Source of the DNA: an uncultured Brevinematales bacterium
Lineage (GTDB): Bacteria > Spirochaetota > Brevinematia > Brevinematales > JAOACQ01
Assembly (NCBI GenBank): GCA_964392785.1
Contig: CAYMRH010000003.1
Location: forward strand, 1 to 56,324
Length of the DNA stretch: 56,324 nt
Direction of reading: 5' to 3'
This document shows positions 8,640 to 45,521 of this stretch, in pieces. The notes beneath the pieces are model-generated. The model did no database searches, was not told the DNA's origin, and saw only the letters and a program-made list of their open reading frames with translations. Position numbers and translations under genes: made by a program. Numbering within the stretch: the stretch's first letter is position 1; each line of letters opens with the position of its first letter.

Positions 8640-8773
8640 AACAACCTCCCGCGGAATATTTCACCACGAAGCCACAAAGAGCACGAAGATCATCTTTCGA
8701 ACACGGGCAGACACCAATTTTATCTTTCTCTTTGTGACTTTGAGTCTTTGTGGTTTAAGGAATCTATTGATTC

Positions 8774-23383: not shown

Positions 23384-23916
23384 CCAGCCGGATCATTCTT
23401 TCGGGTTTCGGGGGCCAGGGCGTTTTGTCGGCCGGAACGATGATCGGCGAGGCGGGCATGGCGCAGGGCTTGAAATCCACGTTTTACCCGTCCTACGGCG
23501 CGGAAATGCGGGGCGGCACGGCCAACTGTCACGTGATATTGTCCGACGGGCCCATCGCATCCCCCGTCATTTCCTCGAACGCGGATATCCTGATCGCCCT
23601 GAACAAACCGTCCCTGGACAAATTCCTGCCGCGCACAAAGGAGGACGGACTGGTCCTTCTGAACACATCCGTCGTCAGGGAGGCGGTGGACACCGGAAAA
23701 CGGACGGTGATCCGCATGCCCGTGGAGGAACTGGCGCTGGAAAAGATCGGCAACCCCAGAATGGCGAACGTGATCCTGCTGGGCGCGCTGGCCAAGGCGA
23801 CCGGACTTTTGAAACTGGACGAACTGAAAAAATCCATCGCGGAAAAGTTCAAAAAGAAAGGCGATCAGGTGGTCCAATTGAACTGGAAAGCTTTGGAGTT
23901 AGGATATCAGTATTAG
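23380..23916 (+). CDS. 2-oxoacid:ferredoxin oxidoreductase gamma subunit
   Basis: Start ATG at 23380 overlaps the beta stop (ATGA). MTSRIILSGFGGQGVLSAG is the gamma-subunit N-terminus. The delta-alpha-beta-gamma order matches OorDABC/KorDABG-type operons. Confidence 0.8.
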   Translation: MTSRIILSGFGGQGVLSAGTMIGEAGMAQGLKSTFYPSYGAEMRGGTANCHVILSDGPIASPVISSNADILIALNKPSLDKFLPRTKEDGLVLLNTSVVREAVDTGKRTVIRMPVEELALEKIGNPRMANVILLGALAKATGLLKLDELKKSIAEKFKKKGDQVVQLNWKALELGYQY

Positions 23917-24021
23917 TTGTCAGTTGTCAGTTGTCAGTTGCTAGTTTCCAGTGGATATTGGAAAAATGTTGTTCTTTAATACCGGCAACTGATCACTGAC
24001 AACCAGCAACTGACCACTCGC
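23917..24021. repeat. Heptamer-repeat palindrome (GTTGTCA)n and inverted copy between the oxidoreductase operon and the DEAD-box helicase gene
   Basis: TTA GTTGTCA GTTGTCA GTTGTCA GTTGCTA GTTTCCA GTGG, a ~30 nt centre, then CAACTGATCACTGACAACCAGCAACTGACCACTCG (inverted heptamers). Likely a bidirectional terminator or regulatory hairpin. Confidence 0.5.
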
Positions 24022-25305
24022 CTACCGCCGTCTCCTGCCGAACCCGCCGCGTCCCCGGCGTCCGCCGGAATGCCAGGATCGGGGCGCGCCCTTGGGTCCC
24101 CTGCTCTCTTCCGGGTAAGCCACAAACTCCTCCGTGGGCATTTCGGGATGACGGATCAGCGGAAGCTGCATCCGGATCAGCCGTTCGATGTTGGCCACGT
24201 CGTTCTTCTGGTCCGGTGTCGCGAAGGAAATCGCGCGTCCGGCGCGTCCCGCGCGGGCGGTACGGCCTATGCGGTGCACGTAATTTTCCCCCTCGTCGGG
24301 CAGGTCGAAATTCACGACCAGTTCGATCCGGGACACGTCAATGCCGCGCGCCGCGATATCCGTGGCCACGAGCACGCGGTAATAACCCGTCTTGAAGCCC
24401 TGCAGGGCCTCCTTTCTCTGGTTCAGCGAACGGTCGGAATGGATTTCCGCCGCGGAGTACCCCATGTCCCGCACGCTTTTGGCGATCTTGCGCGCGCGGA
24501 ACTTGGTGCGCGTGAAAAGCAGGACGGAGCCGGGATACTGCTGCAGGACTTTCTTCAACAGCCCCGTTTTCATGTCCTGGGACACGATATAGAGTTCCTG
24601 CGTGACGCGGTCCACTGTGGTTCCCGCCGGCGCCATTTCCACGTGCACGGGCAGTTTCATGTTATTTTCCACCATCTGGAGGATTTCCTCGGGCATGGTG
24701 GCGGAAAACAGCATGGTCTGGCGTTCGCGCGGAACGGACGCGAGGATCTTTTCCACCTGGGGCGCGAAGCCCATGTCCAGCATGCGGTCCGCCTCGTCCA
24801 GCACCATCATGCGCACTTTGTCCAGCCGGACCGTCCTGCGTTCCAGGTGGTCGATCAGACGGCCGGGCGTGGCGATCAGAATGCGCGGATGACGGCGCAG
24901 GTGGTCCATCTGGACGTTCATGGACGCGCCGCCGATCAGGCACGCCGTCCGGATCCCGAACGGCAGGGCGATGTGTTTCGCGGCTTCGTCGATCTGCAGC
25001 GCGAGCTCGCGGGTGGGAGCCAGGACAAGACCCGTGAAGTCGCCGCCCATGCGCGTCAGGTTCTGGACCATGGGAACGATGAACGCGTGGGTTTTCCCCG
25101 TACCGGTCTGGGCGATGCCGATCACGTCTTTGCCTTCCAGCGCCATGGGAATGGCGCTCGACTGGATGGGCGTGGGGTTCTGGAATTTTATCTTGTCCAG
25201 GATTTCCAGGATCTTGGGGGCTATCCCCAGCCCGAAAAATCCCTGACGGGATTCCGCGGGCGGTGTGTTTTCCGGGTTGTGGTTGTGGGTGTTGATGCCG
25301 AACAT
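24022..25305 (-). CDS. DEAD-box ATP-dependent RNA helicase (RhlE/DeaD-like) with an RGG-rich C-terminal tail
   Basis: Q-motif region, AQTGTGKTHAF (motif I), DEAD, SAT and HRIGRTARAGRAG (motif VI). C-terminus RSWHSGGRRGRGGFGRRRR. Confidence 0.9.
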   Translation of the reverse strand: MFGINTHNHNPENTPPAESRQGFFGLGIAPKILEILDKIKFQNPTPIQSSAIPMALEGKDVIGIAQTGTGKTHAFIVPMVQNLTRMGGDFTGLVLAPTRELALQIDEAAKHIALPFGIRTACLIGGASMNVQMDHLRRHPRILIATPGRLIDHLERRTVRLDKVRMMVLDEADRMLDMGFAPQVEKILASVPRERQTMLFSATMPEEILQMVENNMKLPVHVEMAPAGTTVDRVTQELYIVSQDMKTGLLKKVLQQYPGSVLLFTRTKFRARKIAKSVRDMGYSAAEIHSDRSLNQRKEALQGFKTGYYRVLVATDIAARGIDVSRIELVVNFDLPDEGENYVHRIGRTARAGRAGRAISFATPDQKNDVANIERLIRMQLPLIRHPEMPTEEFVAYPEESRGPKGAPRSWHSGGRRGRGGFGRRRR

Positions 25306-25424
25306 GATTCAAACCTCGTATCAGTCATGATGTTTTAACCGTTTATTATAAGAGAAAAACGGAAAAATCGGAATGAAATTTCCGGATTTATTTTCAGGCG
25401 GGAAGGAGCGGCCGGTTCGTTAAT

Positions 25425-25522
25425 CGACAGTTGCCAGTTGCCGGTTCCCGACCCGTGTTCGGGGCCGTTCACTGACAACTGGCAACTGATAACTGATTAA
25501 TGACAACTGATTACTGACAACT
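25425..25522. repeat. Second heptamer-repeat palindrome (GTTGCCA / TGACAAC units) in the 5' leader region of the helicase gene
   Basis: CGACA GTTGCCA GTTGCCG GTTCCCG acccgtgttcggggc CGTTCAC TGACAAC TGGCAAC TGATAAC TGATTAA TGACAAC TGATTAC TGACAAC. Same heptamer family as 23917-24021. Confidence 0.5.
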
Positions 25523-26054
25523 ACTTCTTAGCCGTCTCAGAAACCAGTTTTCCGACCACAGGGCGTTTGGACAATACGCCCTTGCCGTGCGGCGCGCCCT
25601 TGATCCGAGCGGTTATATCCGTCCCGATCTTTCCGCCGCGGTGTTCGCCTTTGGACCAGGCGCCCACGCCCGTCATGTCGTACACCAGTCCGTCCACGGA
25701 CAGATACATGGGCCGGCCGTCCTTGCCGTCATACTGGGCCAGTTCTTCGGCGGTAAACGCCGGGACCAGTTTGCCGACCACAGGCCGTTTGGACAATACG
25801 CCTTTTCCGTGCGGCGCGCCCTTGATCCGAGCGGTTATATCCGTCCCGATCTTTCCGCCGCGGTGTTCGCCTTTGGACCAGGCGCCCACGCCCGTCATGT
25901 CGTACACCAGTCCGTCCACGGACAGATACATGGGCCGGCCGTCCTTGCCGTCGAACTGGACCAGCTCGTTCGTCGTGAAATAGTTCGTGTTCCCGGCAAA
26001 CGCGATAGCGGCCGCGGTCAGGACCAGGCCCAGCGCCGTCAGTATTCGTTTCAT
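25521..26054 (-). CDS. Secreted protein with two tandem cytochrome b5-like heme/steroid-binding domains
   Basis: Signal peptide MKRILTALGLVLTAAAIAFA. Two nearly identical 74 aa units (FT.EEL.QYDGKDGRPMYLSVDGLVYDMTGVGAWSKGEHRGGKIGTDITARIKGAPHGKGVLSKRPVVGKLV) encoded by a near-perfect 222 bp tandem DNA duplication. Confidence 0.6.
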   Translation of the reverse strand: MKRILTALGLVLTAAAIAFAGNTNYFTTNELVQFDGKDGRPMYLSVDGLVYDMTGVGAWSKGEHRGGKIGTDITARIKGAPHGKGVLSKRPVVGKLVPAFTAEELAQYDGKDGRPMYLSVDGLVYDMTGVGAWSKGEHRGGKIGTDITARIKGAPHGKGVLSKRPVVGKLVSETAKK

Positions 26055-32549: not shown

Positions 32550-33391
32550 AAACACGACGGCGGAAATTCTTCATATTCTCGAATCTTTTTCTGTTCCTTT
32601 TTACGGCCATCTGGTTTGTCCCGACCATCGCGCTCTTTGTCAGTTCGTTCCGCCTGCCCGCAGATCTCTCCGTCTCCGGCTGGTGGAACGCTTTTCTCCA
32701 TCCCGATCGCCTTACGCTGTCCAATTATAAACTCGTCCTCTTCCAGTCCGGCATCGCGCGGGCGTTTTTGAATTCCCTCATTATTTCCATCCCGTCCACG
32801 ATCATCCCGGTGGCCGTGGCGTCGCTGGCGGCCTATTCGTTCGCCTTTATGGAATTCCCGTTCCGAAAAACGCTGTTCATCACGATTCTCGCCCTGCAGG
32901 TCATCCCGCTACAGATCACCCTCATCCCCACGCTCGTCATGCTCAAAGATCTGCGCCTGGCGGGCACGTTCCCGGGCTTGTGGCTCGCCCATTCGGCCTA
33001 CGGCCTGCCGTTCGGAATCTACCTGCTCCACAATTTCTTTTCCAAAATCCCGTCCTCCATCCTGGAATCGGCGCAGATGGACGGCGCCTCCCACCGGCAG
33101 ATCTTCCTCAAGATCATCCTGCCGCTGTCCGTCCCGGCGCTGGCGAGCCTGGCGATTTTCCAGTTCCTTTGGGTTTGGAACGATCTCCTCATCGCGCTGG
33201 TGTATTTGGGCGGCACGCCGGACGTGGCCCCGCTCACCATCCGCATCGCGGGCATGAAGGGGTCGCTGGAATCGGGCTGGCATATCATGACGACGGCGGC
33301 GTTCATCTCGATGGTCCTGCCGCTTGCGGTGTTCTTTGCATTGCAGAAGTATTTTGTGAGAGGGATCCTGGCGGGGGCGGTGAAGGAATAG
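32546..33391 (+). CDS. Sugar ABC transporter permease (MalG/UgpE-like)
   Basis: EAA motif ESAQMDGASHRQIFLKIILPLSVPALA. 4 nt overlap with the upstream permease gene. No ATPase gene adjacent. Confidence 0.85.
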   Translation: MKTRRRKFFIFSNLFLFLFTAIWFVPTIALFVSSFRLPADLSVSGWWNAFLHPDRLTLSNYKLVLFQSGIARAFLNSLIISIPSTIIPVAVASLAAYSFAFMEFPFRKTLFITILALQVIPLQITLIPTLVMLKDLRLAGTFPGLWLAHSAYGLPFGIYLLHNFFSKIPSSILESAQMDGASHRQIFLKIILPLSVPALASLAIFQFLWVWNDLLIALVYLGGTPDVAPLTIRIAGMKGSLESGWHIMTTAAFISMVLPLAVFFALQKYFVRGILAGAVKE

Positions 33392-33480
33392 GTTTTTAGC
33401 CGCAGAGACACGGAGGACGCAGAGTTTACATAATAGTAGGGGCTATGAGCCCCTCTGGCCCCAAGTATTTTTTTCGCCTC

Positions 33481-33693
33481 GCCGGCGTGGCCATAAGGGG
33501 GCCTGCCCCCTTAAACCCCGGGTGCGCGCGGTGCCCTCTCACGGGCAGGACATTGCGAAAGAAACGCGCGGGGGTAAGAATCGCAAACACTCGCCATCGT
33601 GGCGAGGGTTTGCTCATCGAAAGACATCCTGTCTTTCTTAGAAATACTTCGTTTCCTTCACGGAGTAGAATCGAGGGCACAGCGCCGGAAGCA
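33481..33693. repeat. Left ~215 bp inverted repeat bounding the AT-rich island
   Basis: GCCGGCGTGGCCATAAGGGGGCCTGCCCCCTTAAACCCCGG...TGCGAAAGAAACGCGCGGGGGTAAGAATCGCAAACACTCGCCATC...CTTCACGGAGTAGAATCGAGGGCACAGCGCCGGAAGCA. About 75% identical to the reverse complement of 44400-44626. Contains the hairpin TAAGGGGGC-ct-GCCCCCTTA. Confidence 0.6.
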
Positions 33694-33722
33694 AGAACGG
33701 AGAAGGAGTATTAGATATCCAT

Positions 33723-36218
33723 TTATAATTCATTTGCACCAATCACTGTGTCATAGAGTCCAATATCTTCGCCTTCGTGCTTGTTGACTCCGGTATAAAC
33801 CAGACTCGAATCTTCATAGCGTTTGAATTTATAAACGGCATCATTCATTAAAGCGCTGTTAAAAACGTTAAGGCTGACCAATAACTCGAAATCTTTCACA
33901 TTCAATCCCGTTACTTTCTTGAAAAGGCCTGGTTCCAATTGGGTAATTACATCCCGCAAAGTTCTCTCACGGAAATCAGTCAAATACATGAAAATCGGTA
34001 TACGAGTCGCAAATTTAATGAGTTTTTCTTGAATCTGCTTTCTGAGATTTTTATAGGTCTTTTCTTCTTCCGTCAATTTCTTCAGCTCTTTTTTAGTTAG
34101 GTCTCGGTCATTCGCTTCATTCTTTAACTTCTTGATCGCATCCGACTTGTTTATTATAGTTTCAATTTCCTGATTCAGTCTGCGGAAACCCTCGATGTTC
34201 ATAAGCGCCTGCATGGCTTTTTCATTGTTCATAAGTTTTTGGAGTGTGTCATTATCAACATTGACGAGAAGCGCGCTTTCCCATCGGCGCGCCAGTAACG
34301 TAGCGGTGGTTCCGCTCATAGCGATATCTAACACACCCGCCGGATCAATCTCTTTCATGCTCATTCCGTCATAACACAGTACCGGCAAGAAATGAATGAA
34401 ATCCGCTACTTTCTTTTCAGGATTCGTTTCATAAACACTCAGACGGCAGCTATAATCCGCGATTTGCCTTAAAGCCCTGTCCGGTGCAAAATCGAACACA
34501 TAGCACTCACTTTTAATGATTTCTTCTTTATTGGGTGATGAATGATCCGGATTTCTCACCGTCCAGGGCGACTGAACACGGAAAGCCGCTTGAAAGTAAG
34601 TTTCCGGACTGGATGTATTTCTCAGCATGAGAATACCAGTCCACGGTTTTATCGTAACGCCTGTGGTCAGTTTACCGCAGGAAAGCGTGATGGTTTTTGT
34701 TTTCAAAGGGTCGTCCATTGCCTCCAAAACTGGAGGCAGTGCGTCAACTCCTATACCCGCATCGGAACCGGCTGCTACAACAACCTGATAATCATGATAA
34801 AATTTATTCTGCTTTTGGCCAATCAGGGATTTCATGGCATGGCAGGCCGAAACACTGGGCATAAACCAGAGAGTATGGGTTAGTATATTCAATAAACGAG
34901 CGTCTGAAAACGGTAATGGGGGTTTCTGCGCACCCAGTTTTAAATTATCGACAGTTGTTTCCAGTAAGGAACCACGTATCAGATCAAGCCACTTCTGGAC
35001 TTCGTTTTCGTGTACAAATTTCGCACGACTGCCCAATCCCTCGGCGGAGAAAAATTCGTTTAAGTCAAACTCGTTGAATTCTCCTTTCAGGGCGATTTCC
35101 CTTATACTGTCGGGAAGCTGGTAAGTCAGCATGACCATCCTAGGCAGGGCCGCGTAGGGATTTTCTCCGTCCTTCCAATCTTCCTTTGCTTTCTGTTCGT
35201 CTGAATAAGTCCAGTTGAATATCTGTTCTTCGATAAATTCCCCCGATGTAATGGCCCGAAACGGGGTGCCTGAAAGGTATAGATAGTGGCTTGTTGTTAG
35301 CGGCATGATGCTTTCATCAAAATATTCAATACCTTCGCCCTCTGCAAAGGCAGTTTCTTTTCTATCTTCCGCCTCAAATAATTCCTTGGCATTCTCGCGC
35401 CATGCGCCGTAATGATACTCGTCAAAAATAACACAATCCCAATGAATAGCATGAGCCCATTCGTTTTTTAGTTTGATTCCGCCCGCCTCGTTACGCCCGA
35501 GGAAATCCTGAAAAGACGCAAAACAAATGAAGGGTTTGTTTTTCTTCACTTCCTCATAAGTCAAACCGTTACGGGAAATGAATTGCCAGCCTTTGAAATC
35601 AATATGGGACTTCAAATCTTCTTCCCAAGCGCTCTGGACGGCGGGCTTGAAAGTCAATATCAGGACTTTTGACCAGCCCATGGATTTGGCCAACTGATAA
35701 GAGGCGAAGGTTTTACCAAAACGCATTTTCGCGTTCCAGAGAAAGTGAGGTGTTTTACGCGGATTTTCCTTTTTGAATGATTTGAAATAGACCATTGCTT
35801 TTTTGACGGCCTCTTTTTGTTCCGGCCGCATGGAAAAATCCAGGGTGCGGGATTCCTCATTCAATTCACCCCTTTTCACAGCCAACACGGCGGCTTTTAC
35901 CTTCTCAACCGAACATTGAAACCACTCGCCCTCGGGGTTTTTTATACCGATTAATCTTAAATAGCGATGAACATCATGGTCAGTAAAGGAGCTTCCGTCT
36001 CCCCGCATGGCCGATTCTTCAAGAACGATCCGGTAAGGTAAAGGCCCCGGCCTGACCGTTGGGTACTGCTCGGCCACCCGCTCTTGGGCACTTTTTGTCG
36101 TATAACCGACCTTTAATAGCCCCTTATACTGCGGATTGGTGTCTTCATAAGCATAAATGATCGGCTTGACTTCGGGCCTTTGTGGAAATATTTCTTTAAC
36201 GGCCACTCTTATCTCCAC
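33723..36218 (-). CDS. T5orf172/GIY-YIG-like nuclease domain fused to an SF2 helicase/ATPase (restriction-subunit-like), 831 aa
   Basis: The N-terminus PIIYAYEDTNPQYKGLLKVGYTTKSAQERVAEQ resembles the T5orf172/GIY-YIG domain. Walker A AKMRFGKTFASYQ and motif II VIFDEYHYG. Last gene of the five-gene operon. Confidence 0.6.
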   Translation of the reverse strand: MEIRVAVKEIFPQRPEVKPIIYAYEDTNPQYKGLLKVGYTTKSAQERVAEQYPTVRPGPLPYRIVLEESAMRGDGSSFTDHDVHRYLRLIGIKNPEGEWFQCSVEKVKAAVLAVKRGELNEESRTLDFSMRPEQKEAVKKAMVYFKSFKKENPRKTPHFLWNAKMRFGKTFASYQLAKSMGWSKVLILTFKPAVQSAWEEDLKSHIDFKGWQFISRNGLTYEEVKKNKPFICFASFQDFLGRNEAGGIKLKNEWAHAIHWDCVIFDEYHYGAWRENAKELFEAEDRKETAFAEGEGIEYFDESIMPLTTSHYLYLSGTPFRAITSGEFIEEQIFNWTYSDEQKAKEDWKDGENPYAALPRMVMLTYQLPDSIREIALKGEFNEFDLNEFFSAEGLGSRAKFVHENEVQKWLDLIRGSLLETTVDNLKLGAQKPPLPFSDARLLNILTHTLWFMPSVSACHAMKSLIGQKQNKFYHDYQVVVAAGSDAGIGVDALPPVLEAMDDPLKTKTITLSCGKLTTGVTIKPWTGILMLRNTSSPETYFQAAFRVQSPWTVRNPDHSSPNKEEIIKSECYVFDFAPDRALRQIADYSCRLSVYETNPEKKVADFIHFLPVLCYDGMSMKEIDPAGVLDIAMSGTTATLLARRWESALLVNVDNDTLQKLMNNEKAMQALMNIEGFRRLNQEIETIINKSDAIKKLKNEANDRDLTKKELKKLTEEEKTYKNLRKQIQEKLIKFATRIPIFMYLTDFRERTLRDVITQLEPGLFKKVTGLNVKDFELLVSLNVFNSALMNDAVYKFKRYEDSSLVYTGVNKHEGEDIGLYDTVIGANEL

Positions 36219-36245
36219 CTACTTAATTTTTATAGCATTGTAATA

Positions 36246-37751
36246 TTAAGCATTATCTGAATCCATGGGACGAATCATCGATTCGATGAACTCAATATCC
36301 TTGTCACTTAAACCAAAATGCGAGTATAACATTTTATCTGTCCATTTCTTTTTCATATTCATTTTTGGAACAAATGCAAATCTATCCTTTGTTATATGTT
36401 GCGTGTTTTTCCGCAACCCAACAAGAAATCTTACAAATCTTGTTCTTATATATCTGTTTAAATTATCCGCTTCATCCTGATTATCGTATGCACCAACGAC
36501 AATATATGTTTCGGTGCAGGCGCTCATAGGGGGCGCAATTATTGGTTTTCCCATAATCATACGTGGATAATCTCTGGTTTCACCGCCCTCACCATAGCCC
36601 ATAGATAGAAACACTTTCCATAAAGGAATTAATTCAAAACCATTTTCTATATCCTTTCTTTCGATCTTACCAACAGTTTTATTGGCATATAGCTTAATAT
36701 TACCTTTACCAGTTGGTTTGATAAACGTCCTTAGTCCGAAAGGTTTTTGCCGGGATACTTGTTCGCTGAGCGATGGATATTTTTTCTCCAATACCTTATC
36801 AAGGATTGATATCGCTTTGTTAAAACGGACAAATGTATCAAATTGATTAAGCTTTCGTTTCATCGAGTCTTCATTGTTATTCATATTTGTCGTAACAAGA
36901 CAGTCTCCTTGGTAATCGCGTTCCCATAAGAAGTAACAAACACCGCCAATAACTTTTACTCCGGGAAATACATCCGATGCAATAGGATAATCAACCAATC
37001 TTGATATTCTTTTATCATTCAACATGCTGTCTCTGAATTCATCAAGGCCTTTGCCTCCTGCAAACCAACGCGAAGGAATAATAAAGCTGAGATATCTTGG
37101 ATTTAATTTCTTGGCAGTATTGACAAATAATTGATAAATTGGGGATGAGCCTGTGCTATCACCGGCATCACTCAATTGATACGGCGGGTTGCCTACAATC
37201 ACGTCAAATTTCATATTAAATAACTCCTCCGTCTGTTCGGTATGGATAAACTGATACGCATGCGTTTCCAGCGTTTCGCCGCGATCATATTCAACTTGGC
37301 TTGCGCCACAATAAACACATTTACCGTCTTCCCATTTGTGTTTGATGCTTTTAAACATGATATTGCCAACTTCATTTGTAAAAGCACTGCAAACGGAATA
37401 CTTTCCATCCGCTATTTTTGAACAGTATAGCGACCTTCGTGATAAAAGAGCGGTCAGCTCGGTAATGGCAATACCGAATATCTGTTTGGTGTAAATATGA
37501 TTTAGACGCTTTTGCATACTCGGAATTTCTTTTTCAAGACCCGCAATAAGCCGTTTGGCGATTTCCCGCAGGAATACGCCTGATTTTGAAACAGGATCAA
37601 GAAATGTCACATTTTTGTTTTTCCAGAGATCTGCAGGCAGTAAATCCAGTATTCTGTTGGCCAACTGTGGCGGTGTAAACACCTCGTCACTACTTAAATT
37701 GGCAAGGCAAGATAAAACATCCGGGTTATAGCCGGTATTAATCAGCATCAA
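36246..37751 (-). CDS. N6-adenine DNA methyltransferase (gamma-class, Eco57I/TaqI-like), 501 aa
   Basis: Motif X DEVFTPPQLANRIL, motif I FLDPVSKSGVFL and motif IV FDVIVGNPPYQ. The C-terminal half is a probable target-recognition region. Confidence 0.75.
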   Translation of the reverse strand: MMLINTGYNPDVLSCLANLSSDEVFTPPQLANRILDLLPADLWKNKNVTFLDPVSKSGVFLREIAKRLIAGLEKEIPSMQKRLNHIYTKQIFGIAITELTALLSRRSLYCSKIADGKYSVCSAFTNEVGNIMFKSIKHKWEDGKCVYCGASQVEYDRGETLETHAYQFIHTEQTEELFNMKFDVIVGNPPYQLSDAGDSTGSSPIYQLFVNTAKKLNPRYLSFIIPSRWFAGGKGLDEFRDSMLNDKRISRLVDYPIASDVFPGVKVIGGVCYFLWERDYQGDCLVTTNMNNNEDSMKRKLNQFDTFVRFNKAISILDKVLEKKYPSLSEQVSRQKPFGLRTFIKPTGKGNIKLYANKTVGKIERKDIENGFELIPLWKVFLSMGYGEGGETRDYPRMIMGKPIIAPPMSACTETYIVVGAYDNQDEADNLNRYIRTRFVRFLVGLRKNTQHITKDRFAFVPKMNMKKKWTDKMLYSHFGLSDKDIEFIESMIRPMDSDNA

Positions 37752-38409
37752 TTAGCCTCAGAAAATGAGTAACGGGGTACTCTCTGACAGGATCGGGTAT
37801 AAATACATCATCCCCTAGGTCGGAAAAAAGCGGCTCGCTCTTTATTTCTTCATGGGCTAAAAGTCCGTGAAAAGTAAAATCGCGCCTTTTGATATTGCTT
37901 CCATTAACGGGCGACCATTCGGAAAATGTGATGGGATTCTGAGTCACCCCAACGGTTTTAAGAGTCAGCGCGTCGCCCCAAATGATATTTTTACTTAATA
38001 TGAACTTGACCGAATCGAGGCATTCTTTCTTGATCTGATTTTGGAATATAGTCACATATCTTTCATTAAATATCTCGAAAAGACGGTTCCGGCAGTCCTG
38101 AACGTTATCTTCCAGAATATCGATGCCGTAAACACTGGAAATAACCAAAACGGCATTACGCTCATATTCAATCTGGCTTTTAGCATACTTCGTTTCAACC
38201 ATGCTTAATTTGCGCCGGAGAATTACGGCTAAAAAGTTGCCTGCTCCACAGGCCGGTTCCAGAAAACGGGATTCAATTCTTTCCGTTTCTTGTTTGACAA
38301 GATCCAGCATAGCATTGACTTCCCGCGACGCGGTATAGACCTCGCCGTGGTCAGTTACACGCTGTTTGGAAACGACTTGGGATGCTTGTTTCATTTGCGT
38401 CATATTCAA
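37738..38409 (-). CDS. Truncated methyltransferase-like paralog (SAM-binding motifs X and I present, catalytic NPPY absent), 223 aa
   Basis: HGEVYTASREVNAMLDLV (motif X-like) and FLEPACGAGNFL (motif I). No NPPY/DPPY; the corresponding position reads NIIWGDAL. Overlaps the downstream MTase gene by 14 nt. Confidence 0.55.
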   Translation of the reverse strand: MNMTQMKQASQVVSKQRVTDHGEVYTASREVNAMLDLVKQETERIESRFLEPACGAGNFLAVILRRKLSMVETKYAKSQIEYERNAVLVISSVYGIDILEDNVQDCRNRLFEIFNERYVTIFQNQIKKECLDSVKFILSKNIIWGDALTLKTVGVTQNPITFSEWSPVNGSNIKRRDFTFHGLLAHEEIKSEPLFSDLGDDVFIPDPVREYPVTHFLRLIDAD

Positions 38410-39143
38410 TTCAATTGCCTTTCTTTTTTACTTAACTTATCGTTATCAATAATATAGTATTCGAGAGTTTGATTATTCTTTGTATTCTTATTCTTAAGAA
38501 TATTCAGAAATACAAAACCAGCTAAAGCCTGATGGTCTCTGATGGCATGTTTAAAATTGATAAAATGAAGAATTATTAGTACAACAGCAATTACTATAAC
38601 ACAAGTATCTTTGAAAATTATTGATCTAGAAACAATGCACAAAGTTATTAATAACCAGGCCGCTAATGCTGAAATTGAGGCAATACATATTGTACCTAGC
38701 GAGGTTGAAACATCTGCCAATCTTTTCATTCTGGTAATATCATATTTAAAATTCGTATTCGCTTTTGAATGATCAATCACTGAATTTACGATTAAATACG
38801 ACCTTTTCTTTTGATTAACAAGTTTAATATTATCTTTGTAATTATTAAATATAATTAGATTATTATTTACAGCATAATCAACAATATCATTGAAATTGCT
38901 TGAATAACATGAACGCCAAACAAAAGCATAATATATTACACCAAATATAAAACCTAATCCTCCAGAAGCAAGTAAGCCAGAAAGTATAATAATTGCATTT
39001 CCGAGCGAACCATTAACTAGTAATGAATGAAAATAATTGAGAACAGTATAACGATCTGATGAAAGTAAAAAATATAATATCAATTCAACAAAAAACACCA
39101 GGCTCGGTAAAATATAGCGAAAATAGCTTTGCATATCTTTCAT
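38406..39143 (-). CDS. Hypothetical polytopic membrane protein, 245 aa
   Basis: At least 4 predicted TM helices. AT-rich codon usage matches the island. 4 nt start/stop overlaps with both neighbouring genes. Confidence 0.5.
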   Translation of the reverse strand: MKDMQSYFRYILPSLVFFVELILYFLLSSDRYTVLNYFHSLLVNGSLGNAIIILSGLLASGGLGFIFGVIYYAFVWRSCYSSNFNDIVDYAVNNNLIIFNNYKDNIKLVNQKKRSYLIVNSVIDHSKANTNFKYDITRMKRLADVSTSLGTICIASISALAAWLLITLCIVSRSIIFKDTCVIVIAVVLIILHFINFKHAIRDHQALAGFVFLNILKNKNTKNNQTLEYYIIDNDKLSKKERQLN

Positions 39144-39757
39144 GATATGATAACCCCATATTCCTTCTGAAGCAATGATATTTCATTAGGTAACTTATAG
39201 TCTAAATCATTAATGAACTCGATTATTTCGCACACATGAAGAGTCTTTTTATTGTGAATTGGCAGGGCAATGTATTCGATTGGAATAACAATATTTATTA
39301 GATAATCAAGAGCCTCCTCGCTCCAATATCTTTTAGCCAAATTAACATCCAATAAACCGCTTTCAACAAAAACCTTAATGTTCATAAAATAATTAATTAT
39401 CTTTCTTCTGTAAGCATCTAAATTATTGTCATTATTTGAAGAATTTATACACTCAAGATATTTATTAACTAAAATAATTAATTTATCCTTCTTTACTATA
39501 TCAGTATCATCACTATAAATATAGCATTTATGATCCCTTGCAAAATCACAAAGTGATTTTATTGCTTGGTGCATATCTTTGGTTGAATATTGTTCAACTG
39601 CCTTAATAAAGTTGTTGTATTTTGTATCTTTTCTTGATTTTAAGATTGTGTATATTGATAAAATGAAAGCAAGCAACGCAATGATTACATCCGCATGATT
39701 TATGAGTAATCTGATTGGCCATAGAAGCCAATTAACAATAGTACAAAGATTGCCCAT
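39140..39757 (-). CDS. Hypothetical membrane-anchored protein, 205 aa; first gene of the island operon
   Basis: N-terminal TM helices (LCTIVNWLLWPIRLLINHADVIIALLAFILSIYTIL) and a soluble C-terminal domain with no recognised motif. Confidence 0.5.
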   Translation of the reverse strand: MGNLCTIVNWLLWPIRLLINHADVIIALLAFILSIYTILKSRKDTKYNNFIKAVEQYSTKDMHQAIKSLCDFARDHKCYIYSDDTDIVKKDKLIILVNKYLECINSSNNDNNLDAYRRKIINYFMNIKVFVESGLLDVNLAKRYWSEEALDYLINIVIPIEYIALPIHNKKTLHVCEIIEFINDLDYKLPNEISLLQKEYGVIIS

Positions 39758-39976
39758 ACATATCCAACTATTTATTATAATGCAATCACATTATACCCCC
39801 TCCCCCTCCATCTCGTCAAAGCATGATTAGGATTCAGGATATAGGATTTAGGGTTCAGAGGGGTAGGCAGGTCCTTGTTAGGGTCTAGAGGCCAAGATTT
39901 GGGATTCAGGGGGATAGACGGGTCATAGTAGGGATCAGAGGACTGGATTTAGATTTAGATAAAATATTCCGCTTGT

Positions 39977-40147
39977 CTAGAGTAATGATAAAAATACTGT
40001 AATGATAATTATTACTAAAAATAATACAACAGGAATAAGAATTAATAGTTGGCAACCGGTTAATTTTAATTTTGCGCCACAATTCGGACATATTTTTGCG
40101 CTAGAACTGATTTCTTTACCACATTCTCTGCAATTGACTAGAGCCAC
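39977..40147 (-). CDS. Small zinc-ribbon membrane protein, 56 aa, below the ORF-track cutoff
   Basis: Hand-translated: V(GTG)ALVNCRECGKEISSSAKICPNCGAKLKLTGCQLLILIPVVLFLVIIIITVFLSLL*. A CxxC-x12-CxxC zinc ribbon plus a C-terminal TM helix. AGGAG lies 6 nt upstream of the GTG. The overlapping 61 aa ORF listed at 39906..40091 is judged spurious. Confidence 0.35.
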   Translation of the reverse strand: MALVNCRECGKEISSSAKICPNCGAKLKLTGCQLLILIPVVLFLVIIIITVFLSLL

Positions 40148-40187
40148 ACCGCTCTCCTTTCAGCTCGTTTTCTAAGCGAAACCAATT

Positions 40188-40540
40188 ATACCCCCTCCCC
40201 CGCCCCGGCGTCAAAGCATTATTAGGATTCAGGGTCTAGGATTTAGGGTTCAGTTATATATTAACCAGCTGGCTGCCCCTAAATCCTGGATCCTGACCCA
40301 TAAACTGCCCTTAAAAACGAGGTCATCGGCCCAAATAACGAGGCTGTCCTCCTTAATAACGAGGACAACGCCCTTCCGAACGAGGTTACCGGCCTTCGGA
40401 ACGGCAATGCCGGGGTTCAGAAGGAGGATATCCTCCCTTTTCAGGGGAACAGCGGGGTTCTGAGGGGGAATGGCCTCGCTTTTTGGGGGAATAGTGGGGT
40501 TCTGAAGACCAATTTCGGGGTTTTGGCAGCCGCAGTGACA
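40188..40540. repeat. Composite repeat copy A upstream of the small zinc-ribbon gene: ATTATACCCCCTCCCCC box, TTAGGR-like degenerate repeats, then a 21 bp tandem array
   Basis: CCAATTATACCCCCTCCCCCGCCCCGGCGTCAAAGCATTATTAGGATTCAGGGTCTAGGATTTAGGGTTCAG at 40188-40260. About ten ~21 bp units follow from 40315 (AACGAGGTCATCGGCCCAAAT, AACGAGGCTGTCCTCCTTAAT, AACGAGGACAACGCCCTTCCG, AACGAGGTTACCGGCCTTCGG, ...GGGAATAGTGGGGTTCTGAAG). Confidence 0.55.
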
Positions 40541-40935
40541 CAGAGACGCAGAGGATAACCCTCGTCGAAGTTTATCCTGAGCGAGCGTTGAAAGCGCGAG
40601 TCGAAGGGCTAGGGATGACCATGCTCGTTTCCTGACGTCAGAGGCGCTTGGAGCGCCGGCCGCGTAGCGCCACGGACGCTCCTAAGAGGCGGGCTGGGCT
40701 CTGACTAAAGTGTCAGGTGAATACTCTCACGGTACAATTAATCATTTAACTCTACCTTTATAACTCTTTTCAAGAAATACCCCACAATGTTCTCACATAA
40801 CTGTTCGGGGCTTGGCGTAATGGGCGCTTTTCAGCACAAAACTTGATAAGAAACACAGTGTTTATATTTAGCACATAATTTCAAACGAAATACGTCCGCC
40901 CCTATTACATCAAGCACTTGTTAACGGTTCAAGTA

Positions 40936-43608
40936 TTACTGTAATTTTATTGTTTTTTTACAGTTGGGATAATTCGTGCAACCTAAGAAATCTCCATATT
41001 TCCCTGTTCTCTTTATCATATAGCCGCTATAGCAATTTGGGCAGAGGATTTCATCATCTAATATTTCTAAATTGTTAAACGTTTGATCGCAATTAGGATA
41101 ATGTGAACAGCCTAGAAAGTGAGTGCCATTTGATGGGTTTTGTCTAATAATAAGCTTCCCTGTTTTACAGTATGGACAATTTGTAGTTTTGAGCGATCCG
41201 TCAGCAGAAGTTAACAAATAAATATTATCATTTATTATTTCTTCAATAAATAATGAAGGTTCAGTCGGGGTAAGTAATACAACCTCATTTTTAGTTCTTG
41301 TTAACGCTACATAAAACAACCTACGTTCCTCCGCAAATCTAAACTCTTCGTCATCACTGAGCAAAAGAGATAAGATTGGGTCGTCAGTCATTTTATTGGG
41401 AAATCCAAGCAATTGATTCTTAAGATTTAATACGATTACATTGTCCGCCTCAGTTCCTTTTGACTTGTGTACGGTTAAATATTTAATGTCCATATCTTCA
41501 AATCCTTTAACTACTAATTTACCAGTTCTCTCAATGTATTTAACCCTACTATTTGTGGTTTTCTTTATTAATTCGTTAATATCAAACCCATGTCTGCCTA
41601 AAACTAAGATTGATTTGCTTCCATATCTATTTACAAGATTTTGTATTTCGTTTATGAATGAATCTTCCATCTCTTCTTGCGTGTAATAAACAATTCTAAC
41701 AGGGTCTTTCAAAGGTTCTTTCTTAGACTTAGGGGATTTTGATATTTGTTTGGGATTTTTTTGAATGTATTTTGATGCAATGTCAATAAGTGCTTGTGAA
41801 TTTCTGTATGTCTGTTCAATCAATAGTTGTTCATGTATTCCTAGGTATTTTTCGAAATTACTGAATAAAGATATATCGCTACCTGCAAAACGATAAATCG
41901 ATTGCCAATCGTCTCCAACACAAATCAATTTTGCACCAGATAAATCACGAATTTCCTTGATCAAATGAAATCGTGAATACGAAATGTCTTGATATTCATC
42001 TACTATTATATACTGATAGTTGAATTTTATTTTATTACTTTTTATGATACCAGTAGCCATATTTATCATATCATTGAAATCAATCTCATTTCTTTCTTTT
42101 AAAGTTTGGTCGTATTTTTCAAGAATTGGAAGCGCAAATTGCAAGAACATTGCTTGACGTTCTAGCATAAAGTCGCTTTGGAATTTTGTTTTATCCGAAA
42201 ACAATTTGACTAACGAAATCTTGTTTAAACCTCTTGATTTACTTAGATTAACAAAGCTTTCAATAAGGTTATTAATTTCCTTGCCGATATTTATGTCATT
42301 GATCGATATTTCTGTGTAAATTATTTTTGGATCTCTCGGCTTGAAAGCAACCTTTTCCGCTTCCAACATTTCCTTCAGCTTCTTTAACAATATTTTATCT
42401 CTATTGTAATAGGAATATGTTTCTAGTAATTTGGTGCCGTAGGCTTTGTGTGTTTCCCTTTTTAATTGCATAGTTTCTAAATATTTTTGTTCATTAAAAG
42501 GTGTGAGCCATTTTGCCCGATTATATTCGTCTACGCCAAAATGTTCTAAATATATTTCATAATCTGTTAGAAAAAAGTCAGGACGATACATTGCCTGTCC
42601 ATAAGGGTATGGTTTTTCATACTCATACTCAACTCCATTCAGATATAAATAGTTAGCTATTATTAGTTCCTCAACACTTTTAACCCTCTCTCCTTGCATG
42701 GTATTTAGATTTGGTTTTGAAACGATGTTTGAAGGTTCGCATTTTGATTTCAATGTTTGAAAATCAATCCCCTTTTCTGTATCTATTTTTTCTCCCAAAG
42801 ACTTGTAATTGTCAAATTCTTCAGGAATATTCATATAGCATGCAACGTATTGAATAAAAGATTGCAATGCTTCCATATCGTTGAAAATGTCTGTTTTTAA
42901 ATACTCTTTGATCACTCCACTCATTGTGTTTTCATTTGTAACGGCAGGAATGACCGAATAGTATTTTTTTATTATATCATAACCAAGTTTATGAAAAGTA
43001 GTTGCCAGTGCACCAAATCCTAATTTATGAATTCTTTCATTTAACTCTTCTACGGTTTTTTTTGTAAAAGATAATAACAAGATGTTATTGGGATTGATAT
43101 TTTTCTGTTCAATTAGATATTTCACTTTTCCAAGGATTGTAAGTGTTTTACCCGAACCCGCACCAGCAATTATTAAATTCGAGTATTCGTCTGTTATCAA
43201 TGCAGTCCGTTGCTGATCATCTAGCTTTTTTCCTTCGATATTGTCAAAATACTTTTCTAATATTTCTTTTTGTTTATTAACGTAATTTTGGTTATATCGA
43301 GCAATATATCCGTCAAAATCACTGAATATATCATTAAATGTCTTAACGGTTTCTTCTTTCTTGTAATAATAAGTTTTGTTAGCAAAATACTTACTCACAT
43401 CCGAATATTCTGTTTTTATCTGGTCACGGTGTACCCAAGTAACATAATCGTTAAGTGATTGAATACGATGAATAAATTCAGTAATCAGTTGTAAGTTCTC
43501 TAAATAAACAGCGTCTTGATACTTTCTCCTTTCAGATAGTTGCTGGAAAACAATAGAGAAAGCAATTATCACAAACAGGGCGAAAATAAGAGTTAGAATC
43601 GTAACCAC
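40936..43608 (-). CDS. Membrane-anchored UvrD/Rep-family (SF1) helicase with an internal restriction-endonuclease-like insert and two C-terminal topoisomerase-type C4 zinc ribbons, 890 aa
   Basis: N-terminal TM helix VTILTLIFALFVIIAFSIVF. Motif I LIIAGAGSGKTLTILGK and motif II YQYIIVDEYQDISYSRF. Insert around ...YRPDFFLTDYEIYLEHFG... . The C-terminus reads NCPYCKTGKL...GCSHYPNCD and LCPNCYSGYM...GCTNYPNCK. Confidence 0.7.
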   Translation of the reverse strand: MVTILTLIFALFVIIAFSIVFQQLSERRKYQDAVYLENLQLITEFIHRIQSLNDYVTWVHRDQIKTEYSDVSKYFANKTYYYKKEETVKTFNDIFSDFDGYIARYNQNYVNKQKEILEKYFDNIEGKKLDDQQRTALITDEYSNLIIAGAGSGKTLTILGKVKYLIEQKNINPNNILLLSFTKKTVEELNERIHKLGFGALATTFHKLGYDIIKKYYSVIPAVTNENTMSGVIKEYLKTDIFNDMEALQSFIQYVACYMNIPEEFDNYKSLGEKIDTEKGIDFQTLKSKCEPSNIVSKPNLNTMQGERVKSVEELIIANYLYLNGVEYEYEKPYPYGQAMYRPDFFLTDYEIYLEHFGVDEYNRAKWLTPFNEQKYLETMQLKRETHKAYGTKLLETYSYYNRDKILLKKLKEMLEAEKVAFKPRDPKIIYTEISINDINIGKEINNLIESFVNLSKSRGLNKISLVKLFSDKTKFQSDFMLERQAMFLQFALPILEKYDQTLKERNEIDFNDMINMATGIIKSNKIKFNYQYIIVDEYQDISYSRFHLIKEIRDLSGAKLICVGDDWQSIYRFAGSDISLFSNFEKYLGIHEQLLIEQTYRNSQALIDIASKYIQKNPKQISKSPKSKKEPLKDPVRIVYYTQEEMEDSFINEIQNLVNRYGSKSILVLGRHGFDINELIKKTTNSRVKYIERTGKLVVKGFEDMDIKYLTVHKSKGTEADNVIVLNLKNQLLGFPNKMTDDPILSLLLSDDEEFRFAEERRLFYVALTRTKNEVVLLTPTEPSLFIEEIINDNIYLLTSADGSLKTTNCPYCKTGKLIIRQNPSNGTHFLGCSHYPNCDQTFNNLEILDDEILCPNCYSGYMIKRTGKYGDFLGCTNYPNCKKTIKLQ

Positions 43609-43689
43609 AATTTATCTTCCCGAATTATGTTTATGTTACATCGGGTTTGTTTCTTTTGCCTGACCGCTAACTCATATATATACGAATCC

Positions 43690-44120
43690 CATTATACCTC
43701 CTCCCCCTCCGCAGCGTCAAAACCATATTAGGATTCAGGGGCTAGGGTTTAGGATTTAGGAGGGTAGGCAGGTCCTCATTAGGGGCCAGTATTTAGGATA
43801 CAGGGAAATATGCACCAACTGATGTGTTCCTGAATCCTAATCCCTAAAACCCGACCCCTAAACTCTAACCCCTAAATCCTAGACCCTAACCACCACCCCC
43901 GGAACCCTAAAACCTGAATCCTGACCCCTAACATGGCCTACGGAAGGGGAACGTTGCCACTCTGAACGCCATCATTGCCCTTCCGGATAGCAACGTTGCC
44001 CTACAGAACGAGGACATTGGCCTTCCGGACCCCAACGTCGGGGTTCAGAAGGAGGATGTCCTCCCTTTTTAGGGGAATAGTGGGGTTCTGAGGACCAATT
44101 TCGGGGTTTTTTGGTCGTAA
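43690..44120. repeat. Composite repeat copy B upstream of the UvrD-like helicase gene; includes an inverted block of TTAGGR repeats
   Basis: CATTATACCTCCTCCCCCTCCGCAGCGTCAAAACCATATTAGGATTCAGGGGCTAGGGTTTAGGATTTAGG... at 43690-43800. CCTAAATCC/CCCTAAAAC units read in the opposite direction at 43830-43930 (potential long hairpin). 21 bp array at 43940-44120 (AACGCCATCATTGCCCTTCCGG, AACGAGGACATTGGCCTTCCGG, ...GGAATAGTGGGGTTCTGAGG). The 3' part is near-identical to 40400-40540. Confidence 0.55.
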
Positions 44121-44399
44121 ACCACAAAGACACAAAGGAACACAAAGTCAGCTGCGGAGGGCGCGGAGAGCCGGAGGGTTGCCCTCGACCGCCCCCTTCG
44201 ACACGGCCGCCGCGGTGAGCCGCGTCGAACCGTCAGGGCATCGCCTCGGTCGCGGTTGGCGAGCGGAGCCTGCGGTGAGCGAAGCCGAGACTTTTACACC
44301 GAGCCTTGCCCCGAGCAACGTCGAGGGGTAGCCGAGGTGCCATCCTGGCTCCCGTGCACTGGCGCTAGAACATCCATGTTCGCGCCAGTACCTACGGCC

Positions 44400-44626
44400 T
44401 CGTGCCTCCGGCGCTGTGCTCACGATTCTACTCCGTGAAAGAAACGAAGCGTTCCTGAGAAGGGCAGGATGCCCTTCGATGAGCGCACCCTCCGCAGGAT
44501 GCGGAGTGTGCGCGATTCCCACCCCCGTGAGTTTCTTTCACAACGCTTTGCCCATGAAGAGAGCATAGCGCGATTCCGGGGTATAAGGGGGCGGGCCCCC
44601 TTAATGCCGGCGCGGCGAGCGCACGC
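44400..44626. repeat. Right ~225 bp inverted repeat bounding the AT-rich island
   Basis: Reverse complement aligns with 33481-33693 at about 75% identity. Contains the hairpin TAAGGGGGC-gg-GCCCCCTTA and CGATTCTACTCCGTGAAAGAAACGAAGCG, which matches CTTCACGGAGTAGAATCG in the left copy. Confidence 0.6.
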
Positions 44627-44653
44627 CAGCCCGGCGAGGGCACTCCAGCGGTG

Positions 44654-45499
44654 TCACCGCACAATCACATTATCAATCAACCTCGTCTTTCCAAAAAACA
44701 CCGCCAGGGCGATCACCGCTCCGCCGGTCACGGCCTTCAGGTCCTCCAGGGTTTCCGGGTCCGCGACGCTCACGTAGTCGATCTTCGCGTAGGGAATTTC
44801 CGTCCGGATCATGTCCCGCACGGTTTTGACGATCACCGAGGCGTCCCGTTCCCCCGTCCGGATCATGTCCGAACCGGCCGTCAGCGCCTGCCAGAGCACG
44901 GGCGCGTCCTTTCGTTCTTTTTCGCTCAAGTACCGGTTTCGGGAACTCATGGCCAGCCCGTCTTTTTCCCGCACCACCGGCATGACCCGGACCTGAACGG
45001 GCATGTTCAGGTCCTGGACCATTTTCCGGATAATCACGGATTGTTGGTAGTCCTTCTGCCCGAAGTAGGCCGTAGCGGGCCGGACAATATTGAACAATTT
45101 GGCCACCACCGTGGTCACGCCGCGGAAATGCCCCGGCCGGGACAGACCGCACAGGTGGTCGGGCAATTCTTCCACGTCCACGTACGTTTCAAATCCTTCC
45201 GGATACATGTGCCTTGCGGACGGGTAAAAAAGAAAATCGCATTTTTCCTTTTCCAGAAGCGCTTTGTCGTTTTCGAACGGCCGGGGGTAGCGGCTCAGAT
45301 CCTCGGCGGGACCGAACTGGGTCGGGTTGACGAAAATGCTCGCCACGACAATATTATTTTCCTTTCGCGCCTGCCGGACCAGGCTCAAATGCCCCTCGTG
45401 CAGGGCGCCCATGGTGGGAACGAACCCGATGGTCTTTTTTTTCCGGATCAGTTGCTCGGACAGGACCGACATTTCGGAAGGCTTCTTGATGATTTTCAC
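44654..45499 (-). CDS. panC: Pantoate--beta-alanine ligase
   Basis: 281 aa. FVPTMGALHEGHLSLV and the downstream FVNPTQFG are PanC signatures. Confidence 0.9.
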   Translation of the reverse strand: MKIIKKPSEMSVLSEQLIRKKKTIGFVPTMGALHEGHLSLVRQARKENNIVVASIFVNPTQFGPAEDLSRYPRPFENDKALLEKEKCDFLFYPSARHMYPEGFETYVDVEELPDHLCGLSRPGHFRGVTTVVAKLFNIVRPATAYFGQKDYQQSVIIRKMVQDLNMPVQVRVMPVVREKDGLAMSSRNRYLSEKERKDAPVLWQALTAGSDMIRTGERDASVIVKTVRDMIRTEIPYAKIDYVSVADPETLEDLKAVTGGAVIALAVFFGKTRLIDNVIVR

Positions 45500-45521
45500 G
45501 ATCTCCCCCGATGACGAAAAG

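Follow-up and report, generated by a model that had tools for sequence, protein, structure and literature searches.

A repeated sigma-70-type promoter module upstream of imported gene units as a candidate route to their expression in a Brevinematales chromosome

Genes that move between phyla often arrive with promoters that the new host cannot read, promoters from Bacteroidota being the standard example, and the question raised by the locus described here is how a group of such genes might nevertheless be transcribed. The stretch in question is contig CAYMRH010000003.1 of an uncultured Brevinematales bacterium, a 56-kb window (56,324 nucleotides (nt); "the window" below always means this whole stretch) of chromosomal DNA with a guanine-cytosine (GC) content of roughly 60%. 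Between the convergent ABC-permease (end 33391) and panC (end 44654) genes it holds a 10.7-kb low-GC island (31–45% GC) whose seven genes all lie on the minus strand, in three transcription units, and a composite repeat, which we refer to as the module, stands in front of each unit. It is probable, in our judgement, that the module is a portable promoter/insulator of host type that was propagated three times, each time before a separately acquired low-GC foreign gene unit, and the locus in that case shows a possible natural solution to the problem of unreadable promoters. The analysis covers this one genome region together with short contigs of the same lineage. Along the island the order is module 3, helicase gene, module 2, zinc-ribbon gene, module 1, operon, and the three modules are made up as follows.

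39784..39960, minus strand: module 1, 5′ of the five-gene operon; promoter, five contiguous heptads, GGTAGGCAGGTCC block and further heptads in the same orientation, with no inverted arm
40179..40545, minus strand: module 2, 5′ of the zinc-ribbon gene; promoter, C-strand heptad arm, loop, G-strand arm and a block of repeats with a 21/42-nt period
43685..44125, minus strand: module 3, 5′ of the helicase gene; promoter, heptads, GGTAGGCAGGTCC block, long inverted arm and a 21/42-nt repeat block

An initial annotation of this DNA had placed three copies of a core at these sites, 5′ of gene starts, and this description holds. The 17-mer ATTATACCYCCTCCCCC is found at exactly three sites in the window (plus-strand positions 39790, 40185 and 43691; ~0.29 expected by chance), each of them 5′ of a minus-strand gene, and there is no fourth copy in the window even at 3 mismatches. 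Matches to TTAGGATTCAGG-like units, with up to 2 mismatches allowed, fall in the same three places in 16 of 18 cases (3.5 expected), and a repeat finder returns a 105-nt family of three copies at 39784, 40179 and 43685 with identities of 69–79%. Counted from the end of the −10 hexamer described below, all three copies can be aligned without a gap over about −75 to +12, with 60 of the 88 columns invariant; the spacing is therefore fixed, and the variable gap of 5–9 nt that had been allowed within the core is not needed. For all pairs, the best ungapped windows of 50, 60 and 100 nt are 84–86%, 82–87% and 72–80% identical, respectively, copy identity ranges from 65 to 87%, and the longest exact matches between copies are about 13–20 nt. 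At a larger scale the modules form a mosaic, in which modules 1 and 3 have the GGTAGGCAGGTCC block and more same-orientation heptads in common, and modules 2 and 3 the inverted G-strand arm and the 21/42-nt repeat block. The GC-rich tails past 40545 and 44125 show no mutual homology, and the far ends of the three modules are unlike.

The structure of the core provides a clear reading of what the copies conserve. On the minus strand, the coding strand of the downstream genes, each copy presents TTGACG, an 18-nt spacer and TATAAT, which together match a sigma-70-type promoter at 11 of 12 hexamer positions (5/6 for the −35 and 6/6 for the −10 against the consensus, in all three copies). The 11 bases at the 3′ end of the spacer, abutting the −10, are GGGGGAGG(G/A)GG, so that the whole core can be written as the pattern TTGACG-N7-GGGGGAGGNGG-TATAAT.

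39790..39819, minus strand: promoter 1; −35 TTGACG at 39819–39814, spacer with GGGGGAGGGGG at 39806–39796, −10 TATAAT at 39795–39790
40185..40214, minus strand: promoter 2; TTGACG, spacer CCGGGGCGGGGGAGGGGG, TATAAT
43691..43720, minus strand: promoter 3; TTGACG, spacer CTGCGGAGGGGGAGGAGG, TATAAT

These sites are the three best sigma-70-type matches within 33000–45500, all on the gene strand, and the three sites observed at 11/12 or better compare with 0.5 expected in shuffles. All 12 hexamer columns are invariant (P ~0.007 if invariant columns are placed randomly), though the copies otherwise differ at about a third of positions. Ten of the 11 G-tract columns and the 13-nt CCTGAATCCTAAT are invariant as well, and variation is found in the 5′ half of the spacer and at positions −36 to −41. 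Since the core is TTGACG-N18-TATAAT, two boxes that the initial annotation had treated as separate motifs lose their independence: the CCCCCTCCCCC box makes up the 3′ portion of the promoter spacer, and the GTCAAA box is the −35 element read on the opposite strand. The same annotation had also proposed a shared promoter, and this proposal is well supported by matches of this quality on the right strand with hexamers invariant among diverged copies; its interpretation taken as a whole is partly supported. An operator of the MerR or CsoR type within the spacer was ruled out, as the spacer has no dyad symmetry.

Downstream of the promoter, the similarity among the copies comes to a sharp end, 8–14 nt past the −10. 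Identity past the −10 is 50–64% for 14 nt and then 19–32%, the random level, from 15 nt on, and GC content falls at the same point. We therefore place the end of the module near the predicted transcription start, with foreign DNA beginning there, and the junction lies at almost the same base in each of the three defence-gene units. From the end of the −10 hexamer to the start codon there are 33 nt for the operon (ATG, 39757), 38 nt for the zinc-ribbon gene (GTG, 40147) and 83 nt for the helicase gene (GTG, 43608), and the zinc-ribbon gene has a clear AGGAG Shine-Dalgarno sequence before its start codon. Promoter-like sites of this same type, several of them with an 18-nt spacer, also precede native genes of the window: TTGACA-N18-TATAAT at 20546, 5′ of a MerR-like gene, TTGGCT-N18-TATAAT at 2599, where GGGGG directly adjoins the −10, TTGCCG-N18-TATAAT at 26389 and TTGACA-N17-TATTAT at 1537, each of which is then followed by a Shine-Dalgarno sequence and ATG.

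The genes that begin at these junctions are of foreign origin. The three transcription units are listed here (aa, amino acids).

33723..39757, minus strand: transcription unit A, a tightly packed low-GC operon of five genes, encoding a DUF4760-like membrane protein, a 245-aa membrane protein, a methyltransferase N-terminal fragment, an Eco57I-type methyltransferase and a GIY-YIG (T5orf172) + ResIII nuclease-helicase
39977..40147, minus strand: transcription unit B, a zinc-ribbon protein of 56 aa with a hydrophobic helix at its C-terminus
40936..43608, minus strand: transcription unit C, an 890-aa UvrD / helicase IV-like (GajB-like) protein with two topoisomerase-type zinc ribbons

The helicase protein is 75–79% identical to proteins named from Flavobacterium, Dysgonomonas, Psychroserpens, Maribacter and other Bacteroidota, and its gene is 83% identical over 2,677 nt to a low-GC contig (L003). 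Outside the coding sequence there is no such homology, and no trace of the module exists upstream of the gene in L003. Promoters of Bacteroidota have a different consensus and function poorly in other phyla, from which we infer that an imported Bacteroidota gene would need a new promoter; the native promoter of the helicase gene was probably of the Bacteroidota type. The methyltransferase gene and the GIY-YIG/helicase gene form a mobile pair that recurs on plasmids from many phyla, with 46–55% protein identity. An exact look-up of the island proteins returned only contigs identical to the window, or nothing. The methyltransferase fragment in the operon is a 223-aa open reading frame (ORF; 37738–38409, minus strand) that matches only the N-terminal part of MmeI/type IIG methyltransferases and has a 14-nt overlap with the beginning of the complete Eco57I-type methyltransferase gene (36246–37751, minus strand); we take it as a possible remnant or split gene.

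The housekeeping genes of the window include parA/parB, pyrG, panC, a fumarase subunit gene, pyruvate:ferredoxin oxidoreductase genes and ABC-transporter genes. The best named matches of PanC are ~63% identical at most and come from metagenome-assembled genomes of Brevinematales and Omnitrophota, which places the host in an uncultured, poorly sampled lineage.

Two independent contigs of this lineage bear on the junctions at the island. The first (L004), from a related strain and a separate sequencing run, is 97% identical at the DNA level through panC and a flanking 225-nt element, to window position 44371. After the divergence, downstream of panC, it has ~180 nt of different sequence, then a 21-nt block that is 68–77% identical, together with a heptad hairpin (z = −6.7) whose loop GGTTAATATATAA matches module 2. 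The similarity ends ~10 nt short of the expected −35, where CTGACAACTGGCAAC repeats are found instead, up to the contig end, and no TTGACG/TATAAT follows this diverged module. The arrangement ties the module to the host chromosome in an independent assembly and indicates that the promoter part can be separated from the repeat/hairpin part; the divergence also means that the locus differs between close strains. In the second (L005), from a separate assembly, module 1 is contiguous with the low-GC genes. An assembly chimera is unlikely, since these independent contigs carry both kinds of junction.

The low-GC island is flanked by two inverted copies of the ~225-nt element (33478–33696, plus strand; 44400–44619, minus strand), which share 80% identity. 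Both are situated immediately 3′ of a host gene and begin with the hairpin AAGGGGGCCYGCCCCCTT, and homology with the related strain stops ~30 nt past the element. An RNAalifold consensus contains 70 pairs, 8 of them with changes on both sides (e.g. CTCGCC...GGCGAG vs CTCCGC...GCGGAG), and this predicted fold suggests a structured RNA or single-stranded DNA element; it has no match in Rfam. A partial third copy is present at ~4930–5070 (plus strand), beside another low-GC stretch, and the copy in L004 spans 1518–1745.

The part of the module upstream of the −35 is built from 7-nt units and, in two of the copies, from longer repeats.

39827..39861, minus strand: heptads of module 1, which read TTAGGAT TCAGGAT ATAGGAT TTAGGGT TCAGAGG on the plus strand
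40215..40310, minus strand: heptad hairpin of module 2, directly upstream of the −35 of promoter 2, with arms 40222–40248 and 40277–40303
43721..43940, minus strand: imperfect hairpin of module 3, 220 nt, with C-strand arm 43728–43805 and G-strand arm 43829–43931
40309..40540, no strand assigned: about eleven 21-nt units of the CCTTnnnAACGAGGnnnnCGG type merging into 42-nt units, with the palindrome GGAGGATATCCTCC inside (module 2)
43940..44114, no strand assigned: repeat block of module 3 with a 21/42-nt period and the palindrome-like GGAGGATGTCCTCC at 44051–44064

Each copy has five contiguous YCCTRAA heptads on the minus strand, from about −76 to −42, followed by 6 variable bases before TTGACG. 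On the G-rich strand, the consensus of 41 units is T-Y-A-G-G-R-T, with an invariant AGG core and spacings that are multiples of 7. The two promoter-proximal heptads are identical in all copies and the distal ones vary, the distal arrays being long, degenerate and interrupted. The region 43721–43940 of module 3 folds at −94.7 kcal/mol (z = −4.35), and none of 200 shuffles is as stable, which confirms an earlier observation of opposite-orientation units near 43830–43930 and a long hairpin. The hairpin of module 2 (40222–40303) reaches −36 kcal/mol (z = −3.67). Module 1 (39820–39976) forms no hairpin (z = +0.55), and its minus-strand RNA, with 34% C and 11% G, has the composition typical of Rho-loading tracts.

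The 21/42-nt repeats of modules 2 and 3 include GGAGGAT(A/G)TCCTCC and have open frames on both strands without a protein homologue. They are probably non-coding, because the module 3 block has in-frame stops and a profile of the translated repeats, searched against 5.8 billion proteins, found only the related strain's own ORF. A GAGGA-NN-TCCTC inverted repeat is kept in all versions of the 21-nt block (40341–40353, 40423–40436, 44051–44064; ~2021–2036 in L004), with a varying centre (TA, TG, AT) and a short plus-strand T-run after it (CTTTTC or CTTTTT), and might serve as a weak terminator on the plus strand or as a binding site for a dimer. The G-quadruplex formation suggested in the initial annotation is not borne out: no module has a canonical motif (four runs of at least 3 G, loops of 1–7 nt) on either strand, relaxing the loops to 12 nt or less yields candidates only at 39901–39933 (plus strand) and 43869–43907 (minus strand), and the spacer G5AG5 could form a two-tetrad structure at most. 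A phase-variable repeat tract was also ruled out, as the heptads are too degenerate and the G-runs only 5 long.

Heptad arrays of other sequence are found in native intergenic DNA of the window, where inverted GTTGYCA / ACTGACA arrays form hairpins directly after genes. One such hairpin, at 23905–24022, lies between convergent genes (z = −5.8), and another, at 25420–25530, follows the end of a gene and precedes the promoter region of its neighbour (z = −5.2); GTTGYCA units are found at 23915 and 25428–25522, with the units at 25471–25522 including TAACTGA. As heptad hairpins typically follow native genes, we read the arrays of the modules mainly as boundary or terminator-like elements. The worry, voiced in the initial annotation, that the repeats might be ordinary simple-sequence DNA is thus justified for heptad arrays in general, which are common in intergenic DNA, but not for the TYAGGRT type, which is confined to the three modules within the window. 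A further set of 7–8-nt units of the CACAAAG / CACAGAG / ACGCAGAG type lies at intergenic ends (4655–4680, 8665–8750, 33400–33425, 40535–40560 and 44120–44147), and modules 2 and 3 each have one of these arrays at their outer edge.

Outside the island, a 642-aa ORF (5697–7625, minus strand) without a Pfam match shifts in GC content within its frame, from ~33% (5697 to ~7200) to 53–60% (~7200–7625); foreign DNA may here be fused to native DNA, or the stretch may form a second small island. At 25543–25972 there is a near-perfect tandem duplication of a 222-nt unit (95–96% identical) in GC-rich, apparently coding DNA.

Taken together, we hypothesize that the host housekeeping sigma-70-type RNA polymerase would begin transcription ~7 nt past the −10, and that the module would in this way give the imported genes a promoter readable by the host. 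The heptad arrays may form a boundary that keeps out read-through from the unit before, with modules 2 and 3 forming a long RNA hairpin and module 1 presenting a C-rich, G-poor, unstructured tract that resembles a Rho-loading site. The invariant proximal heptads and the G-tract would be the likeliest contacts for a shared host factor, which could place the three units under common control. The copies could have arisen through duplication or recombination of a pre-existing module at a variable locus, that is, by promoter propagation and not through a dedicated integrase.

Several points weigh against this explanation. The predicted transcription starts (near 39783, 40178 and 43684 on the minus strand, with leaders of ~26, 31 and 76 nt) derive from the consensus only, and the presumed sigma-factor preference of the host from a handful of native sites. 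The three copies are paralogous, and their promoter matches are therefore not three independent events. By E. coli terms, an 18-nt G-rich spacer is suboptimal. The hairpins have no trailing U-run and are therefore not canonical intrinsic terminators, and the absence of a hairpin from module 1 means that any insulator role is not uniform. Finally, no candidate factor that binds the heptads or the G-tract was identified.

Searches for further copies of the module covered several collections. Exact patterns of the promoter core, run against 185,579 representative genomes, gave one match, TTGACG-N7-GGGGGAGGGGG-TATAAA, in Candidatus Sulfotelmatobacter. Patterns for the −35 plus heptads and for the conserved 21-nt block had no match in JGI metagenomes and viral contigs, and a blastn search with module 3 had none in plasmids and phages. 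In Rfam, at gathering and E-value thresholds, nothing relevant was found, and there is no tRNA. The Sulfotelmatobacter site (L001 7470–7510, DATHOG010000213.1; TTGACG-N7-ATAGGGGGAGGGGGTATAAA) lies in a divergent intergenic region by a CsoR/RcnR-like repressor gene (MKVKHARPGLEKRALVVRLRRIKGQVEAIERMV...) and is probably the G/C-tract operator of that repressor overlapping a promoter. We judged it unrelated to the module, as its ATA...TAT flanks, which are typical of CsoR/RcnR operators, are not present in the copies of the window.

It is possible that the heptad arrays are operators, in which each 7-bp unit binds a small cooperative protein, the G-tract is perhaps a second operator, and all three units are jointly repressed or activated by a single factor. 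Such an arrangement is plausible as a regulatory layer added to the promoter, with which it is compatible, and as the explanation of the modules we consider it unlikely, if the most credible of the alternatives. The five contiguous heptads with their invariant AGG core and multiples-of-7 spacing fit it well, as does the conservation of the two proximal heptads next to varying distal ones, and the heptads that overlap three promoters of pSM19035 provide a precedent (PMC9499535). However, no ribbon-helix-helix, helix-turn-helix (HTH) or other DNA-binding regulator domain was found in the island proteins, the two uncharacterised ones being membrane-like, the flanks encode no such regulator either, and the heptad sequence is unrelated to the WATCACW unit of that precedent. 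The distal arrays resemble decaying simple sequence more than operators, and the native heptad hairpins of the window lie at gene 3′ ends and not at promoters.

The modules could instead be cassette recombination sites, at which foreign cassettes are inserted or exchanged in a chromosomal hotspot, by homologous recombination between the copies or by a site-specific enzyme acting on the hairpins, with the promoter carried along as part of the site. The support for this is circumstantial, and we regard it as improbable. Module copies in direct-repeat orientation flank the low-GC units, and their sub-blocks are mosaic (GGTAGGCAGGTCC in modules 1 and 3, the 21-nt block in modules 2 and 3, the loop GGTTAATATATAA in module 2 and L004). 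The strain with 97% identity in panC breaks off ~30 nt past the flanking element and continues with a diverged module and then different sequence, and the island sits between the inverted 225-nt elements at a boundary of conserved and variable DNA. Yet neither the island and its flanks nor the remaining ORFs examined in the window (housekeeping genes) encode an integrase, transposase or other recombinase, and the attC core sites GTTRRRY and RYYYAAC are absent from both strands of every module; integron attC sites were ruled out on the grounds that there are neither core sites nor IntI. Module 1 lacks a hairpin, no module follows the last unit, exact matches of 13–20 nt at 65–87% identity make a poor RecA substrate, and the collections searched above (representative genomes, JGI metagenomes, viral contigs, plasmids and phages) hold no other instance. 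A reading as miniature inverted-repeat transposable elements (MITEs) was likewise rejected for the copies in the window: no inverted match to the 17-mer of the promoter end exists there, with up to 3 mismatches allowed, and there are therefore no terminal inverted repeats.

A more speculative extension, to which we give slightly less credence still, would join the modules and the two inverted 225-nt elements into an integrase-independent capture-and-expression locus, where strains swap cassettes at module boundaries. Foreign defence genes would here be inserted at a fixed junction, ~8 nt past the −10 of a ready-made promoter/hairpin unit, in a functional analogue of an integron that is made of different parts.

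Least probable is that the modules are non-functional simple-sequence DNA, in which slippage repeats chance to surround promoters, recent local duplication accounts for the similarity and any G-quadruplex or i-motif potential is incidental: the several unrelated heptad families in the intergenic DNA of the window, the degenerate distal units and the absence of a canonical G-quadruplex motif would agree with this, but the hexamers, G-tract and proximal heptads are invariant at roughly 22% overall divergence, the hairpins are far stabler than shuffled controls, and a copy stands at every transcription unit of the island and nowhere else in the window.

We thus return to a propagated promoter/insulator module of host type as the explanation that we favour. 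If it is true, and transcript mapping agrees, the locus would document promoter propagation onto recent horizontal transfers in an uncultured lineage, and would supply a compact promoter/insulator part of 90 nt. Were the modules also to delimit cassettes, a study of the locus as a hotspot for the building of defence islands would be worthwhile.

Several known systems can be compared with this arrangement. Like integron cassettes, the island consists of same-orientation gene units separated by imperfect-palindrome repeats at a variable locus. Unlike integrons, it has no IntI, attI or R′/R″ core sites, module 1 is without a palindrome, and each unit has its own promoter in place of a common Pc. 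Among heptad repeats, the STRR heptamers of cyanobacteria are tandem intergenic heptanucleotide repeats with several families per genome. TAACTGA repeats are intergenic tandem heptamers of Beggiatoaceae, Cyanobacteria and Bacteroidetes with suspected regulatory roles, and most lie a few nt upstream of start codons, where a post-transcriptional action has been proposed (PMC4679880). The native ACTGACA / TAACTGA-like arrays at 25471–25522 make this family the nearest analogue of the host-wide habit of heptad arrays, whereas the TYAGGRT units differ in lying upstream of a promoter, often as inverted arrays.

For the arrays of the modules themselves, the nearest architectural analogue is the set of operators of the omega protein of pSM19035. 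This ribbon-helix-helix ParB binds 7–10 contiguous non-palindromic heptads of mixed orientation over three promoters, with one dimer per heptad (PMC9499535). The modules resemble these operators in having at least four contiguous 7-bp units at three promoters and, in modules 2 and 3, inverted arrays. They differ in their unit (TYAGGRT against WATCACW), in the absence of a ribbon-helix-helix gene or partition ATPase from the island, in their chromosomal setting, and in the position of the arrays, which lie upstream of the −35 and not over the core promoter.

Short modular intergenic repeats that form hairpins and can provide outward promoters or terminators include the Correia elements of Neisseria, pneumococcal BOX and enterobacterial REP/BIME, and BOX elements contain internal sub-repeats in variable number. 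The module can be seen as a functional analogue of promoter-bearing repeats of the Correia/BOX kind, unlike which, and unlike REP elements, it has no terminal inverted repeat or target-site duplication and no sequence similarity to them.

The closest known category is that of putative mobile promoters, which are highly similar upstream regions of 50–100 nt, at 80% identity or more, before non-homologous genes of one genome (PMC3488235). The published interpretation sees in them reused promoters by which silent or recently gained genes are activated (PMC3488235). The best 50–60-nt windows of the module are 82–87% identical in all three pairs, in agreement with that definition, and the downstream genes (DUF4760-like, zinc-ribbon, UvrD-type helicase) are non-homologous. 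Insertion sequences, MITEs and riboswitches are excluded from the category, and within the window we found no Rfam match, transposase or inverted promoter end. Putative mobile promoters are defined by similarity and have no common architecture, in contrast to the heptad array of all three copies and the hairpin and 21-nt block of two, and the copies described here all lie in one island, before imported defence genes. We conclude that the modules form a sequence family that is new in itself but is best explained by an already known phenomenon, the reuse of promoters.

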